Virus genome (UHGV): UHGV-1555466
Direction: 5' to 3' (one strand)
Source of the DNA: a virus
Length of the DNA: 43,198 bases
Shown: positions 5,866 to 20,401 of the stretch, one piece after another
Layout: the number at the start of each line of letters is the position of its first letter
Position numbering within the stretch: position 1 is the first letter of the stretch
Notes under the pieces: model-generated
The model's input: the letters and a program-made list of their open reading frames with translations, nothing else
What the model was told of the DNA's origin: nothing
Database searches by the model: none
Program-made: the position numbers and the translations under genes

Positions 5866-6627
5866 TTACGAGGAAGCGTTAGCTATTTGAGCTTGTGTAA
5901 ATTCGAAACCAGAATTTTGTAACCGTTGCACTAGACGAGGAACTGTTTCACGTACATGGTCGTTGAAATTCAGATACAAAATCCCGTTAGCATCAGAAGG
6001 CTGTTCTAGGTGCTGTTTCTGAAGGATTGCTACATTGCTGCGCCCTAAGGACGAAAGAAGCATACCCATCTCGAGTACAACGTTCTGTCTTGCGCGGGGT
6101 TGGATTTCTGCTTCACCGGCGCGCTTTGAGTATCCCATATCATCAGGTGTCAAAAGAACAATCCCGAAACGAGTAGCAGTTTGTCCTTGCCCAATTTCAC
6201 GTTCAAGCTCTTCAATAATGGTGAGTCCAGTCCCTCCCGTATTCTGCAAAATGAAATGGTCTGGTAATCCAAGTTTATGAAGGATTAGCTCAAGTTGTTC
6301 CTTTGCAGTATGGTCATGGCCGTGAACAATGAATATCTTTTTGGGAAGCTCAGATGGCTGTTCTACGGCTAGTGGTGTTGCCGTGGGGGGCGTTCCTAAA
6401 TGGGACATTATTGCAGTTTCAACATTGGGACGTTCTTGAGGGTTCCCTTGAAACTGAATGGTCCGGGTGGTGTAAAGGTTAACAATTACGCCATTCGTTA
6501 AACGATAGCAGTCATAAGTCTCACGCTGTTCGTGGGAAAAATTGGTGAACCCACACTCCCTCAAAAAGTCAGGAAAAGATTCTCTCGGGTATGGATAGTT
6601 GATCGGCATTTCAGTTAGTTCCTGCAT
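5866..6627 (-). CDS. TIR-like domain protein (COG4271/PF10137-like C-terminal domain, unknown N-terminal domain)
   Basis: 253 aa; KKIFIVHGHD...FGIVLLTPDD...RARQNVVLEMGMLLSSLGRSNVAIL...EQPSD; own terminator downstream. Confidence 0.55.
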   Translation of the reverse strand: MQELTEMPINYPYPRESFPDFLRECGFTNFSHEQRETYDCYRLTNGVIVNLYTTRTIQFQGNPQERPNVETAIMSHLGTPPTATPLAVEQPSELPKKIFIVHGHDHTAKEQLELILHKLGLPDHFILQNTGGTGLTIIEELEREIGQGQTATRFGIVLLTPDDMGYSKRAGEAEIQPRARQNVVLEMGMLLSSLGRSNVAILQKQHLEQPSDANGILYLNFNDHVRETVPRLVQRLQNSGFEFTQAQIANASS

Positions 6628-8801: not shown

Positions 8802-9431
8802 ATGCATATGATCCAATACTTGATTGACCATACAGAGCATCTGGAGAAAATAGCTGGATATATTTTTTCATGTTTGATTGTTATGGGAGTCTGGATAAGA
8901 AAGATCATTTTTAATTATAAGTATAAAGAGCCTAAATATGTCAAGAAGTTAATTTTATATTTAATTAAGTATGAACGTTATCTGGATAAGGAGGATAAGA
9001 AAGCCATAGAAAAAAGAATAAATGATAAAATTATTCGTGATGCGCTGAAATTGCAATCCTCTTATAACCGAAGAGATGTTATTTACATTTGCAATAGATT
9101 AGAAAAAAGACAGTATATAAATCAGTTGATTAAGCTTCAGAATTATATAGAGAAAGATAACGGAGTGTTTTTTATTAATGTTGATTTTTCAGGTTTTTTA
9201 TTTATTATTAGTCGTCTGTTTTCCTTTCTGTGTTTTGTGCTGTTTACCCTTTTTTCTATTATCTGCATTATTTCCATAGGGCAAAATGAAGGCCTTTTAA
9301 ATTATCTTGTGTATATGGTTATGATAATAGTTTTAGAGACTGTTGGTTTTTGGATGTATGATACTTTCCCGTCTAAGAAAAAGATCTGTGAACTAAATAA
9401 AGAATTGAGAAAGATTAAGATTCCTGAGTGA
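8802..9431 (+). CDS. hypothetical membrane protein (AT-rich moron, antisense to replication operon)
   Basis: 209 aa, very AT-rich; N-terminal hydrophobic segment and C-terminal transmembrane cluster flanking a Lys/Glu-rich region. Confidence 0.6.
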   Translation: MHMIQYLIDHTEHLEKIAGYIFSCLIVMGVWIRKIIFNYKYKEPKYVKKLILYLIKYERYLDKEDKKAIEKRINDKIIRDALKLQSSYNRRDVIYICNRLEKRQYINQLIKLQNYIEKDNGVFFINVDFSGFLFIISRLFSFLCFVLFTLFSIICIISIGQNEGLLNYLVYMVMIIVLETVGFWMYDTFPSKKKICELNKELRKIKIPE

Positions 9432-11351: not shown

Positions 11352-12254
11352 TTAACCCTCCAGTGCTTTTTCAGCCAGGGTGATTACTTCAGCGAGATTT
11401 TCATCCGTTACTTCACCAAGTTTCCTGGCTCCCTGTTTTTCCAGAATTGCAATAGCTTCTGCCCGGTAACCCCCTTTTGCTAACTGGAGGATCAACCCTT
11501 CAGCTTGTTTGCGTAGTGCCGCGAAATCAATTGTATGGTCATCTTTGGCGTCATTATTCTGGCTGGAATTTGCTGTGTCTCTGCGTGCAAATTCTTCCTG
11601 CAGCTGAAGGTACTCAACACGGTTGGTCTCGATATGGCCTTTTTTCAGCATCTCGTTCAACTTGCGTAAGGTGTGGAGTTCACTGGCTGCTGTGCCGGAT
11701 ACATTTTTGACGTAAAACGGCCCCGTGCGTTCTCCATCTTTGTTACTGGCCTTTTTCGGCTTAACTTCATCACGCCCATCCGCAGGTGCATCAAGTAGCT
11801 GCTCGGCAAAAGCACGTCGCTCGCCGATGGTTGGCAGGTCGTCCCAGAACTTAAGGATGTTACGGGACAGGTCCAGGAGAGCAGGTTTAAGCAGCGCCCT
11901 GGCTCGTTTGACGCCCTGCAATGCGCTGTCGAGAGCATCAATCTGAACTACTCGTTTATCGCCTTCAGCATCACGGTAGGCAACAGCACGTTGCAGCATG
12001 TCTTCTGTGATAGGGGTGGCTACTGGGTAGAAACCAGCCAGTGCGATAACGTCGCTGAACTCCAGATCATCCAGTGTCATTGCCGCTGACATATTTTCAG
12101 TTTCAGTTGCTGTATCCCGACATTCCTGCACTCGTGAAATCGTGTCAGGATGCATAACAATACCTGATGCCATTGTGCGGATAAGACGTTCAAGCAGCGC
12201 ATTATGTTGTGCCAGAAGTTGATTATTAAGTTCGAGACTGGTTTCTAAACTCAT
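11352..12254 (-). CDS. hypothetical phage early protein
   Basis: 300-aa ORF in operon; ATGA overlap with upstream small ORF. Confidence 0.6.
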
Positions 12255-12400
12255 ACTGTGGTCCTCGCTACAAGGAGAATGAAAGTGATGATCAGACCGA
12301 GCGCAGTGGCAACGGCCAGACCGGTCATCAAATCGAAGTTTTTACGGCGATAACGGAGAACATCGCGCCCCGTCAGTCGATAGAGGTGTTCAGGTTTCAT
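12251..12400 (-). CDS. small hydrophobic peptide (49 aa), first gene of the leftward operon
   Basis: [49 protein letters not shown] read from the minus strand; AGGA about 10 nt upstream; stop overlaps next ATG. Confidence 0.35.
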   Translation of the reverse strand: MKPEHLYRLTGRDVLRYRRKNFDLMTGLAVATALGLIITFILLVARTTV

Positions 12401-12460
12401 CGGTTGTATTCCTTTTTTCATATCGGGGAGCGCGCTGTTGCGAGTGCGCTTTCAGACATA

Positions 12461-12485
12461 AAAAAGCCCGTCATTTGCGGCGGGC
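12461..12485 (-). terminator. intrinsic terminator-like hairpin upstream of the leftward operon
   Basis: gcccg(12466-12470)/cgggc(12481-12485) followed on the minus strand by UUUUUUAU. Confidence 0.4.
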
Positions 12486-12624
12486 AAAGACTACACACAG
12501 CAATTACATGGATATCATCGAGTGCCTGCTTTTAACCACATCAGGCGAGGTGGTTCTCCTTGTACCCCTACAGTGAGAAATCGTCTAATATCTCTTCACC
12601 CCTACAGTTTGAGAGAGATTAGAT

Positions 12625-13194
12625 ATGTCTGAAGAAAAAGGAATTCTTTCCCGGATAACTGAATCGTTATCCGGCGTGGGAGGAGCAATTAAAGGCGCGG
12701 TTGGAGCAGCAAGAGAGATTCAGAATCTGACTGTCGACTATGCAGTTAAAGAGAAGACGCACACCTTACTCGATAAGCTAATGGATGTTCAGATGCAGCA
12801 AATGTCGCTTCAGGAGCTGCTGATTGCGGCTAAGGAGAAAATTGTTGAACTGGAAAATGAGAAAGTAAAGCAAGAGAACTGGGCCGCTGAAGCGGCGAGC
12901 TATGAACTTTACCAGCCTATGCGGGGTACTCTGGTCTATCGCAGCAAGCTTTCTGCAGATACTGACCAATCTCCGGTTTATATTTGTCCCAATTGCTACG
13001 AGCAAAAGAGAAAATCTATATTGCAAGCGGAAGGTCTGGTTATTAAGCCAGGCCTTGGGCGAGCCGTTAATATGGTTTGTTCGCACTGTAGGGCTTCCTA
13101 TCTGTTCAACCGAAATGCTTTAGAGGCCAGACTGCCTGCTGAAGATGAAAATCCGGGGAAGGCAATCACGGATTACGATCCTTACAACCAGTAA
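12625..13194 (+). CDS. hypothetical protein, coiled-coil plus C-terminal zinc ribbon (immunity-region moron)
   Basis: 189 aa; heptad-rich middle, CPNC...CSHC; GAGAG RBS; own downstream hairpin. Confidence 0.6.
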   Translation: MSEEKGILSRITESLSGVGGAIKGAVGAAREIQNLTVDYAVKEKTHTLLDKLMDVQMQQMSLQELLIAAKEKIVELENEKVKQENWAAEAASYELYQPMRGTLVYRSKLSADTDQSPVYICPNCYEQKRKSILQAEGLVIKPGLGRAVNMVCSHCRASYLFNRNALEARLPAEDENPGKAITDYDPYNQ

Positions 13195-13244
13195 TTTCTT
13201 TAAGCATGGGTACCCTTCCGGCCACCCAGAGTTAAAGGAACTAA

Positions 13245-13270
13245 GCGCCCCATCGTCGGGGCGTTTCAAC
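13245..13270 (+). terminator. hairpin after the 189-aa gene
   Basis: gcgcccc/ggggcg stem with short U-run. Confidence 0.4.
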
Positions 13271-13500
13271 TTGCGTGACTTATCAGTTCGTCGCGGTGTT
13301 GTCCTCTACGCTTACCGTACGCATACGGACTCGGCGCTTACCTCGATCCCATCGGGTGCCATTTCATTTTGCCAGGAGTACTGCGGCTTACCTGTCACGC
13401 GGTTCAGTTTGTTAAAGAGCTGGTATTAAAAAACGCATTAATTATGCGGTATCGTATTTATATGCGTTATGGGATTTTGCGTCAATACGAAAATGAATTA

Positions 13501-13540
13501 TTTTGCAAATAAGAAAACCGCCCTTGTGGAGAGCGGTTTG
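13501..13540 (-). terminator. intrinsic terminator after cI
   Basis: aaccgc(13516-13521)/gcggtt(13533-13538), then UUCUUAUUUG on the minus strand. Confidence 0.45.
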
Positions 13541-13569
13541 ATCAGAAGTAAGTTATCAGACTGTAAAGG

Positions 13570-14244
13570 TTAGTACATGCGTAGCGCGGATTTGGCGATC
13601 CCCGCCACGTAATGGATTTTTTCAATGTTTTCGCGTGGTACTCTGACTGGTGGATGATCTTCATTTACAGACATTAGATGGAACAGGCCATCGCGTTCGA
13701 ACAAGAAGGTTTTAACCATGACCTCACCGTCCCGGGTAACCACAAGTACTTCATCACCAGGAGTGTAGTCGTGGTTGGGTTCGACGATTACGAACTCACC
13801 CTCTTTGATTCTAGGCATCATTGAATCACCAACACATTTCAGGGCGTATGCATCTTCATCCTTTGTCGGCCAGTATATGAAACCATCACTGCTACCTACT
13901 GAATATTGGGTGTCGCTCCAAAGTCCTCCAACGCCTAGCTGAGTGTTTCCCAAAACAGGTACTTTATTAAACCTAAGAGAAATATACGTTTTTATACCCG
14001 TCGCGTCCTCTTTCTCCATTTCTTGAAGGCTCCTTTCTGCCAGGTCTATTGGTGACACGTGGAAGTAGTCGGCGATCTGCTTTAACGTTGCGTATTTCGG
14101 ATCTTTCACCTCTCCTGATACCAGCCTGTGTAGCGTTGGTTGGTTCAGTTGTAACCGACGTGCCAGCTCAGTTATCGAGCTTATCTTGGCTTTGTCCATC
14201 AGGTACTTGATGTTTTGAGAAAGGATATCGGTAGTATCAATCAT
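13570..14244 (-). CDS. CI-like repressor (HTH plus S24 LexA-type peptidase domain)
   Basis: 224 aa; N-terminal HTH; C-terminal GDSM and downstream Lys characteristic of autocleaving repressors. Confidence 0.85.
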   Translation of the reverse strand: MIDTTDILSQNIKYLMDKAKISSITELARRLQLNQPTLHRLVSGEVKDPKYATLKQIADYFHVSPIDLAERSLQEMEKEDATGIKTYISLRFNKVPVLGNTQLGVGGLWSDTQYSVGSSDGFIYWPTKDEDAYALKCVGDSMMPRIKEGEFVIVEPNHDYTPGDEVLVVTRDGEVMVKTFLFERDGLFHLMSVNEDHPPVRVPRENIEKIHYVAGIAKSALRMY

Positions 14245-14385
14245 TTGGATTCATCCATGTTGTATACAGGGACGGTGATTATGCGTTATCGGATATTTTA
14301 ATCCAGGATGATATAGAATTGCCGTATTGCTGAATAATCCGTTTTCGTATAAATTTGCGCTATAGACGAAAGTGGAGACTTAAAT
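14245..14385. promoter_or_regulatory. divergent cI/cro promoter-operator region
   Basis: Intergenic between divergent repressor and Cro-like genes; candidate rightward promoter TTGCTG (~14328) and TATAAA (~14349), GGAG RBS before cro. Confidence 0.5.
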
Positions 14386-14586
14386 ATGTCCGGACTAACA
14401 CCACAAGAGATGGTCAAAAGCTTGATTGATTCAGGGTATACCCAAAACCAAATTGCCGAAATTGCAGGCGTGAAGCAGTCTTCTATTAGTCGGCTTCTCA
14501 CCGGGGTTCATTCTGACCCTCGCTTTTCTACAGTACGTGCGATAGAAAAGCTTTTTCAGGAAGTGACAGCTAGACAAAAGGCGTAA
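14386..14586 (+). CDS. Cro-like HTH regulator
   Basis: 66 aa; YTQNQIAEIAGVKQSSISRL helix-turn-helix; divergent from cI. Confidence 0.7.
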   Translation: MSGLTPQEMVKSLIDSGYTQNQIAEIAGVKQSSISRLLTGVHSDPRFSTVRAIEKLFQEVTARQKA

Positions 14587-19828: not shown

Positions 19829-20401
19829 ATGACTAAGAAGCTGAAAGCAAAACACGAGGTGTTTTGTCGCGAGTTTCTTGTCGATCTGAATGCTACACAA
19901 GCAGCTATTCGCGCAGGCTACGTCTCCAGGCGAGCACATGTTACGGGGGCTGAACTATACGGTAAACCTGAGATACGCGCCCGTATTAACGAGCTAAAGC
20001 AGGAGCGTATTGATCAACTGGGCATTGATGCGAATTATGTGCTGATGCGACTGGTTGAGATCGACAGGCTCGATGTGGCTGACATCCTAGAGGACGATTT
20101 AAGTATTAAGCCTCTGTCTGCGTGGCCGGAATCGTGGCGTCGGTACCTGAGTGGATTTAACCTCGCTGAAATGTTTGAGGGGCGAGGAGATGACAGAGAA
20201 ATGGTCGGGATCCTTAAAAAGATTAAGTGGCCTGATAAGGTTAAAAACCTTGAGTTGCTTGGGCGTCATGTTTCTGTTCAGGCGTTTAAAGACAACGTCA
20301 AAAATGAAGTGACTGGCGCTGATGGAGGACCAGTCAGAACAGAAATTACCAACTTAACGCCGGAGCAGGCTGCAGAGGCGTATAGAAAAATGATGGGCTA
20401 A
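19829..20401 (+). CDS. terminase small subunit
   Basis: 190 aa; N-terminal [24 protein letters not shown] typical of small terminase. Confidence 0.7.

Follow-up and report, generated by a model that had tools for sequence, protein, structure and literature searches.

The window analysed here is a DNA sequence of 43,198 nt, UHGV-1555466, and positions are counted along its whole length. It is an Escherichia coli prophage, integrated beside yfhL and shoB/ohsC. This report concerns a 189-aa gene in the immunity region of the prophage, annotated to date as encoding a hypothetical protein (RefSeq WP_001551500.1, and likewise in the GenBank records of the phages vB_EcoM-606R2 and vB_EcoM-611R5), together with the sequence upstream of it and the leftward transcription predicted to cross it. 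The gene is a homologue of rip1 and is referred to as rip1 below. An initial reading made from the DNA letters (the sequence-only reading) had placed it between the early-left operon and cI, convergent with cI, and this open reading frame (ORF) and its neighbours were confirmed. The genes and the hairpin downstream of rip1 are as follows.

12625..13194, plus strand: rip1 homologue, 189 aa, ATG start, convergent with the repressor gene.
13570..14244, minus strand: CI-type repressor (HTH + Peptidase_S24), with its own terminator at 13539..13515.
14386..14586: Cro-like gene.
12251..12421, minus strand: first early-left ORF, 49-56 aa, phrog_11981, starting approximately 40-60 nt past the minus-strand terminator described below.
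13244..13268, both strands: GC-rich hairpin, 50 nt past the rip1 stop codon.

The 189-aa protein is a member of the Rip1 family by homology and fold, and its defence activity and trigger are predicted from that membership. When used alone as a phmmer query, it matched chain L of PDB entry 9oox, the ring interacting pore 1 (Rip1) of phage HK446, with an E value of 8.5e-48 over residues 3-166, which is nearly its full length, and the profile of the family built around it matched the same chain with an E value of 1.3e-47. Identity to HK446 Rip1 (gp37) is 52 % by BLASTP, and tblastn found homologues in Pseudomonas phages of the D3112/JBD30/DMS3 type. A word-indexed search recovered 16 relatives, and a full HMMER profile search recovered 3,411 cluster representatives (at 50 % identity), approximately 150-170 aa long and with the same layout. 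Across this family, W86, Y93 and four cysteines are invariant.

The layout of the protein consists of a Gly/Ala-rich amphipathic helix (approximately residues 7-34), a long helix (39-90), a four-cysteine zinc-ribbon domain (93-166) and a lineage-specific tail (167-189). The AlphaFold model has helices at 7-34 and 39-90 followed by a beta-rich C-terminal domain, and the N-terminal Gly/Ala-rich segment has the highest helical hydrophobic moment in the protein. The central coiled coil and CPNC...CSHC zinc ribbon seen in the sequence-only reading correspond to the long central helix of the model and to the motifs CPNC (C121, C124) and CSHC (C152, C155), the four cysteines of which are invariant in 47 sampled family members. 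The tail of 23 residues (..ITDYDPY..) is common to relatives in the same phage type. The protein thus combines homology to a characterised Rip1, a modelled N-terminal amphipathic helix and C-terminal half, and carriage by a phage or prophage.

Scans of the protein with Pfam, NCBIfam and PADLOC gave nothing at threshold, only sub-threshold zinc-ribbon and coiled-coil noise, and no Pfam or NCBIfam model matched any of the 47 sampled family members at threshold. The PHROGs assignment is phrog_1244, function unknown. The Rip1 family is large, yet it has no Pfam, NCBIfam or PADLOC model, and annotation pipelines miss it.

In the passages of PMC13434031, PMC12908700 and PMC13601566 that summarize Patel et al. 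(2026, Nature 651:1060), Rip1 is described as a single protein, encoded by prophages, that does no harm on its own. Twelve copies of it form an assembly around the 11-mer ring of the small terminase, with the C-terminal half binding the ring and the N-terminal amphipathic helix forming a membrane pore, so that the infected cell is permeabilized ahead of phage maturation. According to the same summaries, mutations that allow escape from Rip1 lie within the portal protein in the case of Pseudomonas phages and within the small terminase in that of E. coli phages, and the summary in PMC13434031 places the Pseudomonas rip1 between the terminase genes. The HMM and structure searches proposed in the sequence-only reading thus led to a protein whose published role is exclusion, as had been guessed, and this homology supports the designation of the window gene as an exclusion-type gene. 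The window protein resembles Rip1 of HK446 and of Pseudomonas aeruginosa prophages in its full-length homology, in the helix-helix-four-cysteine architecture and in being prophage-borne. It differs from HK446 Rip1 in belonging to a phage of a different type, in having the 23-residue tail and in lacking a near-invariant His. The resident small terminase (19829-20401) has no sequence match to the partner chain in 9oox.

The position of the gene is also shared with known exclusion genes. The HK446 rip1 is located with N on one side and ral/cIII on the other, runs opposite to the pL operon and is preceded by the same upstream cassette as the window gene. HK620 carries hkaP, a distant family member (29 % identity) annotated as a 'putative superinfection exclusion protein', in the same place and behind the same cassette; its sequence is far more divergent, and HK620, unlike the window phage, has N, nutL and annotated tL1/tL2 terminators. 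In P22, the same place, between gene 24 and ral, is occupied by sieB/esc. The sieB-type position suggested in the sequence-only reading is thus borne out by equivalent slots in three phages. The Pseudomonas rip1 is an exception, lying between terminase genes rather than in the sieB slot.

The proposed comparison of the locus across related prophages was also made. Relatives of the same phage type (DUF2800/DUF2815/polA/primase) keep the order of an early-left ORF on the minus strand, rip1 on the plus strand and cI on the minus strand. Among the closest relatives (L006, L007 and L008), rip1 and cI are separated by three small minus-strand ORFs in L007 and L008 and by one minus-strand ORF of 143 aa in L006. 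Leftward transcription from the repressor side would therefore pass rip1 in the antisense direction in these phages.

The phage lambda RexAB system is also a prophage-expressed abortive-infection function encoded in the immunity region and acting on the membrane, and it consists of two proteins co-transcribed with cI from pRM. The window gene is predicted to resemble it in all three of the former respects. However, there is no sequence relation, and the window gene, which is convergent with cI, has a predicted promoter of its own. In a Yersinia prophage (L009/L010, 4546-5163), an N-peptide gene and Rfam matches to C4 antisense RNA and isrK were found beside its rip1, and this appears to be an immunity RNA arrangement of the P1/P7 or Gifsy type beside a Rip1 gene.

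Approximately 100 bp upstream of rip1 align closely with the upstream regions of HK446 rip1, HK620 hkaP and the rip1 of the Yersinia prophage. BLAST with this region found 144 phage records at 80-87 % identity, including lambda (34403-34499) and P22, and identity to the lambda and P22 sieB promoter region is 81-87 % over 79-99 nt. The slot opposite the early-left operon and a cassette of approximately 100 bp are accordingly shared with sieB of lambda and P22, as judged by sequence homology. The P22 record annotates a 'sieB promoter' and a 'sieB RNA start site', and these positions were carried to the window by alignment, which puts the predicted transcription start at A12598, the first base of the second of the two direct repeats. 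Both repeats reported in the sequence-only reading are present as exact copies. The features of the cassette are as follows.

12561..12598, plus strand: putative sieB-type promoter of rip1, with a -35 overlapping repeat copy 1, a -10 (TAATAT) at 12586-12591 and the start at A12598.
12564..12574, plus strand: direct repeat copy 1, ACCCCTACAGT, overlapping the -35; on the minus strand it falls within the loop of the sas-like RNA's hairpin B.
12598..12608, plus strand: direct repeat copy 2, ACCCCTACAGT, with which the putative rip1 mRNA begins (11 nt); on the minus strand it is in a hairpin loop.
12522..12632, minus strand: putative sas-like antisense RNA region, complementary to the rip1 start codon, Shine-Dalgarno sequence, 5' untranslated region (UTR) and promoter.
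12555..12550 and 12539..12534, minus strand: arms of hairpin C, which forms a pseudoknot with stem D.
12546..12542 and 12528..12524, minus strand: arms of stem D, which forms a pseudoknot with hairpin C.

In shuffled windows, the repeat, with at most one mismatch allowed, had a mean of 0.40 matches, and three matches were reached in 1 of 100 shuffles. A third near-copy inside rip1 (13085-13095, minus strand, one mismatch) is within chance expectation. As a separate observation, the codons of the second CxxC of rip1 (..CACTGTAGGGCT.., 13080-13095) are complementary to the putative mRNA 5' end and repeat at 10 of 11 positions, which is also within chance; these codons might nevertheless base-pair with the 5' UTR.

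The loci that were found independently of the motif (lambda, P22, HK446, HK620 and the Yersinia prophage) all carry the two ACCCCTACAG copies and the upstream hairpin (AACCAC..GTGGTT) without variation. A pattern scan of viral contigs for the double repeat gave at least 120 loci, or 130 cassette matches when pooled with the earlier ones; invariance of the repeats among these scanned sequences is a consequence of how the scan was constructed and is not counted as evidence. A downstream ORF was found for 129 of the 130 cassettes. The majority encode SieB (90, with 61 of the P22 type and 29 of the lambda type), 32 encode members of the Rip1 family (17 of the HK446 type, 7 of the window type and 8 of the hkaP type) and 7 encode other proteins. 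As one cassette precedes SieB, Rip1, hkaP and other genes, the repeats are part of a portable promoter cassette with interchangeable exclusion cargo. Relative to the sieB-esc-sas locus of P22 and lambda (Ranade and Poteete, 1993), the window locus has the same slot antisense to pL and a homologous promoter with both ACCCCTACAG copies and the mRNA start. However, the cargo protein is unrelated (Rip1-type and not SieB-type by BLASTP), and there is no N gene beside the locus.

The complement of the cassette is homologous to sas, and this supports the suggestion in the sequence-only reading that a small antisense RNA may be made here. The sequence of P22 sas is listed in a 2026 RNA-seq paper (PMC13397905, Table 2), and the RNA was detected in P22-infected cells. 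We found that it is the exact complement of the P22 cassette, beginning at the sieB start codon and extending across the two repeats and the hairpin, and that nucleotides 27-112 of P22 sas are 88 % identical, over 85 nt, to window positions 12607..12522 on the minus strand. In reviews, sas is an antisense RNA through which sieB translation is switched and P22 evades its own SieB. It is reportedly processed from the pL transcript (Ranade and Poteete, 1993).

Base pairing was counted in 54 distinct cassette sequences, which had been selected by the repeat pattern and show little variation. The three stems counted were the stem around repeat copy 1, the CCAC/GUGG hairpin and the GCCUG/CAGGC stem that forms a pseudoknot with that hairpin. 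Together they are 91.5 % paired, as against 34-50 % when the partners are slid, and five pairs have changed on both sides, a number that none of 500 shuffles reached. This covariation is supportive rather than strong evidence for a sas-like structure. A further hairpin (-9.3 kcal/mol, z -3.8) is formed by the sequences on either side of copy 2 in the window. The whole sas-like region together with the terminator folds no better than shuffles (z -0.83). By eye, only a weak AAGAAT was seen as an independent minus-strand promoter within the 5' end of rip1, and no such promoter is claimed. It is plausible that the antisense RNA presents CUGUAGGGGU in loops to the mRNA 5' end, ACCCCUACAG.

The source of leftward transcription would be a pL promoter on the far side of rip1. 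The features concerned, including the RprA-like module at the end of this path, are as follows.

13485..13457, minus strand: predicted pL (TTGACG, 17-nt spacer, TATAAA), read from the sequence.
13443..13508: OL-like operator cluster, mirroring the OR region at 14280-14350 and left of the cI terminator at 13539..13515.
13409..13420, minus strand: rrn-type boxA and start of the rrn spacer, GCUCUUUAACAA, approximately 30 nt into the predicted pL transcript.
12460..12505, minus strand: RprA 3'-domain-like module, AAUUGCUGUGUGUAGUCUUUGCCC followed by the terminator hairpin (12485..12461) and U6.

The operator repeats comprise a family of three copies (D1, TATGCGnTAT..) and an inverted pair (I1) of 24 nt that is 83 % complementary. 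A promoter core, TTGAC[AG]-17-TATAAAT, is at the same place in L006 and L007, whose operators differ. From the predicted pL to 12421/12400 there is no minus-strand gene start, so pL would transcribe approximately 1 kb of untranslated RNA antisense to rip1. On this path the hairpin at 13244..13268 (-15.8 kcal/mol on the plus strand and -15.4 kcal/mol on the minus strand) is likely to be the rip1 terminator in one direction and also a hairpin on the pL transcript in the other; the intrinsic hairpins on the pL path are probably partial attenuators.

N, nut boxB and HK022 put-like elements were looked for downstream of the predicted pL. No N-like ORF or Pfam match was found between the predicted pL and the early-left operon, and no boxB-like hairpin adjoining boxA was seen by eye. 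The arrangement thus differs from lambda-type N/nut antitermination, in that the window has boxA without an N gene or boxB. The pL leader folds no better than shuffles (z -0.39) and has no homologues outside the window phage. The sequence GCUCUUUAACAA occurs as an exact copy only once in the window, and is identical to the E. coli rrn boxA from position 2 to position 9, continued by the initial four bases of the spacer. The rrn boxA-spacer sequence, ugcucuuuaacaauuua, suppresses Rho-dependent termination (PMC2724277, citing Berg et al.). An rrn-type boxA would fit with carrying a long untranslated transcript across rip1, but read-through of intrinsic hairpins would not be explained by it. Given boxA and the lack of a recognizable N gene, antitermination of the approximately 1-kb early-left leader by host (Nus) factors is suggested. 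We also note that GCTTACC (GGTAAGC on the pL transcript) occurs three times within 83 bp of the pL leader, at 13310-13316, 13336-13342 and 13386-13392; on the plus strand of the whole window, there are five copies of GCTTACC and four of GGTAAGC.

The sequence-only reading had described a minus-strand terminator at 12461-12485 with no obvious gene to terminate. The hairpin (GCCCG..CGGGC, stem energy -9.2 kcal/mol) and the T6 that follows it are present, but the second part of the claim did not hold, as predicted pL transcription passes there. The automatic terminator scan missed this hairpin because its loop of 10 nt exceeds the 3-8 nt limit of the scan. As it is on the predicted pL path, approximately 40-60 nt before the first early-left ORF, it can be explained as a tL-type element, and HK620 has annotated terminators, tL2A and tL2B, at the equivalent spot. 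The alternative suggestion, that it attenuates early-left transcription, is consistent with this predicted position just before the early-left genes.

The terminator is part of a segment that resembles the Hfq-dependent host small RNA (sRNA) RprA. In a permissive Rfam scan, 12569..12456 on the minus strand scored 50.2 bits (E 1e-5) against RprA (RF00034), for which the gathering score is 70; there was no Rfam match at gathering thresholds for this region. Positions 12505..12460 match nucleotides 59-104 of rprA at 39 of 46 positions (84.8 %), including 24 consecutive identities (AAUUGCUGUGUGUAGUCUUUGCCC), after which the terminator stem differs in sequence but with compensation. The same match is obtained with the annotated rprA of nearly every E. 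coli genome. RprA has a processed, functional form that consists of its last 47 nt, RprAproc (PMC9262595), and it is this conserved 3' domain, terminator and U-tract that the window shares. The 5' two-thirds of RprA gave no convincing alignment (low posterior probability, few identities), and the module lacks a recognizable RprA 5' domain with its stem-loop seed for rpoS and hdeD. The module also differs from RprA in scoring below the gathering threshold and in being fused to the end of a phage antisense RNA region, and an Rcs-type promoter was not identified for it.

Among the cassettes, the RprA-like module was found in 4 of 7 of the window type, 1 of 17 of the HK446 type and 6 of 61 of the SieB type, and it is also in L007. 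It is present in the Cronobacter phage phiES15 before kil (L135:1510-1548) and in the virulent Erwinia phage Ea9-2 after thymidylate synthase (L134:600-648); lambda and P22 do not have it. In phiES15, 186 nt around the module score 40.6 bits against Rfam STnc100 (gathering score 47). A phrase search, confined to the literature library consulted, found no paper on phage-borne RprA-like elements. The similarity appears to be undescribed and is the one possibly new observation here; any function is putative.

One alternative account of this segment is that it is an ordinary tL-type intrinsic terminator, whose likeness to rprA is a relic of recombination or the result of convergence, with no sRNA function and no discrete small RNA. 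We regard this as possible. The Rfam score (50.2 against 70) and the unaligned 5' half are in keeping with it, as are the presence of tL2A/tL2B at the equivalent place in HK620 and the absence of the module from lambda and P22. However, the hairpin is preceded by 24 nt that are identical to the best-conserved part of RprA and that a terminator does not need, and the module recurs in unrelated phages (Ea9-2, phiES15) and with different cargo genes.

A second account concerns the repeats, and holds that the main role of the ACCCCTACAG copies is as DNA sites rather than RNA elements, bound at about -30 and +5 by a protein that controls the promoter, for example an activator or repressor of the host or phage. 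According to the P22 annotation, the -35 with which copy 1 overlaps is a poor one and copy 2 occupies +1 to +11, the direct repeats are 34 bp apart (about three helical turns), and in independently found loci the sequence between them varies while the 10-mers are fixed. We consider this explanation rather unlikely, though still a serious alternative. The whole region has as its complement an RNA that was detected in cells infected with P22, a compensatory change in the flanks of copy 1 maintains the RNA stem, and there is no known candidate for the binding protein. The repeats were also considered as a LexA box (CTGT-N8-AGAG), which was rejected, as the conserved C is mismatched and the centre is GC-rich. 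CI operators were also rejected, as the operator motif of the phage (TATGCGnTAT..) does not match. A third account, in which the protein serves the phage's own cycle as a zinc-ribbon regulator or as an accessory protein of recombination and has no defence role, is very improbable. In its favour, nucleic-acid-binding proteins commonly have zinc ribbons and coiled coils, Pfam gave weak zinc-ribbon matches below threshold, and the gene adjoins the replication and recombination operon. Against it, the protein has strong full-length homology to a structurally characterised Rip1 and matched no DNA-binding family at threshold, and the gene is opposite the early operon, behind the promoter that drives SieB in other phages.

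The explanation that we prefer is that the window gene is a Rip1-family, single-protein abortive-infection defence of an inducible E. coli prophage, carried in the sieB slot behind a sieB-type cassette, with antisense shut-off from pL and a tL-type terminator. We place the probability of this explanation as a whole at approximately 0.75. In the lysogen, rip1 would be transcribed rightward from the sieB-type promoter, starting at about 12598. If the published mechanism of the family applies, the protein would do no harm until the ring-shaped small terminase or portal of another phage is made, and would then assemble as a ring around that oligomer via its C-terminal zinc-ribbon half. The N-terminal amphipathic helices would form a membrane pore, and the cell would die before the invader matures.

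Upon induction, by analogy with P22 sas, pL (13485..13457) would read antisense through rip1 and the cassette, yielding a sas-like RNA with complementarity to both the start codon and the 5' UTR of rip1. This RNA and the convergent transcription would shut off Rip1 synthesis, and the resident phage would therefore not be killed by its own defence. The repeats on the antisense RNA can both be placed in hairpin loops, and these are a plausible starting point for antisense pairing. The terminator at 12485..12461 would be a tL-type partial terminator that attenuates entry into the early-left genes and gives the antisense transcript an RprA-like, probably Hfq-binding, 3' end. As no N gene is present, boxA near the pL start is proposed to protect the approximately 1-kb untranslated transcript from Rho, and probably does so.

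A more specific proposal is that lytic growth yields one composite small RNA, from approximately 12632 to 12460 on the minus strand. It would combine a sas-like domain silencing Rip1 in cis with a 3' domain that mimics RprAproc, binds Hfq and acts in trans on, or titrates, host RprA targets, and would be made from an N-less pL using the rrn-type boxA and host Nus factors. We consider this doubtful.

Several points weigh against the preferred explanation. Every RNA end and promoter at the locus is inferred. The AlphaFold model of the protein is moderately confident (pLDDT 70.8). The window-type subfamily lacks the near-invariant His before the first CxxC and has the extra 23-residue tail, and the trigger range of window-type Rip1 may therefore differ. 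The closest phage relatives, L006, L007 and L008, have rip1 without the two repeats and with a different proximal sequence, so the repeats are not essential for Rip1 expression generally. The strong copy-2 hairpin of the window is missing from lambda and P22, and is thus not general across cassettes. Antitermination by an rrn-type boxA is documented against Rho-dependent, not intrinsic, terminators (PMC2724277). P22 uses an inhibitor, Esc, made from an internal start, and no internal start with a ribosome-binding site was visible in the rip1 sequence; self-immunity to Rip1 may work otherwise or be unnecessary.

The relatives that lack the repeats, L006, L007 and L008, retain the upstream hairpin and the RprA-like terminator, and their early-left leader is conserved. 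In the upstream hairpin there is a compensatory change, C-G to A-T, between L007 and L006. In place of the repeats, an imperfect palindrome (CTGACAGT-TCTCAC-ACAGTCAG) precedes rip1 in these phages (L006:780-850, L007/L008:3930-4000).

With regard to the setting, the OhsC antitoxin sRNA (Rfam RF02495, 99 bits) at 21-97 on the minus strand is the mark of the chromosomal flank. The region is 100 % identical in the induced phages vB_EcoM-606R2, vB_EcoM-611R5 and vB_EcoM-689R2, and at least 80 % of it was found in 49 of 5,426 complete E. coli genomes, as prophages adjoining yfhL. The phage type has a polA/DUF2800/DUF2815/primase replication module, with Q present, N absent and a myovirus name. Two further genes were noted. 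A 209-aa ORF at 8802-9431 on the plus strand, opposite the early-left replication operon and between polA and the DUF2815 gene, has a GC content of 28.7 %, as against 49 % for the window; it matches phrog_10579 (function unknown), its sequence appears hydrophobic, it has no PADLOC match, and it looks like a second moron or accessory gene. A TIR-domain protein encoded at 5866-6627 on the minus strand, inside the early-left operon (according to the RefSeq/GenBank annotation of identical records), could have a defence or counter-defence function.

The core of these findings is already known, namely the Rip1 family, published in 2026, and the sieB promoter and sas cassette, from 1993. What would be added is that Rip1 genes share the expression and antisense cassette of SieB, that an RprAproc-like 3' module may follow it and that pL may operate without N and with an rrn-type boxA. 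If functional, the RprA-like module would represent an sRNA mimic carried by phages. In the sampled loci, at least four kinds of exclusion cargo are found behind the cassette, and the sharing of the cassette suggests antisense shut-off from pL as a way in which a prophage avoids its own terminase-sensing pore. For E. coli, a 'hypothetical protein' of approximately 1 % of complete genomes becomes a predicted abortive-infection defence of the Rip1 type.

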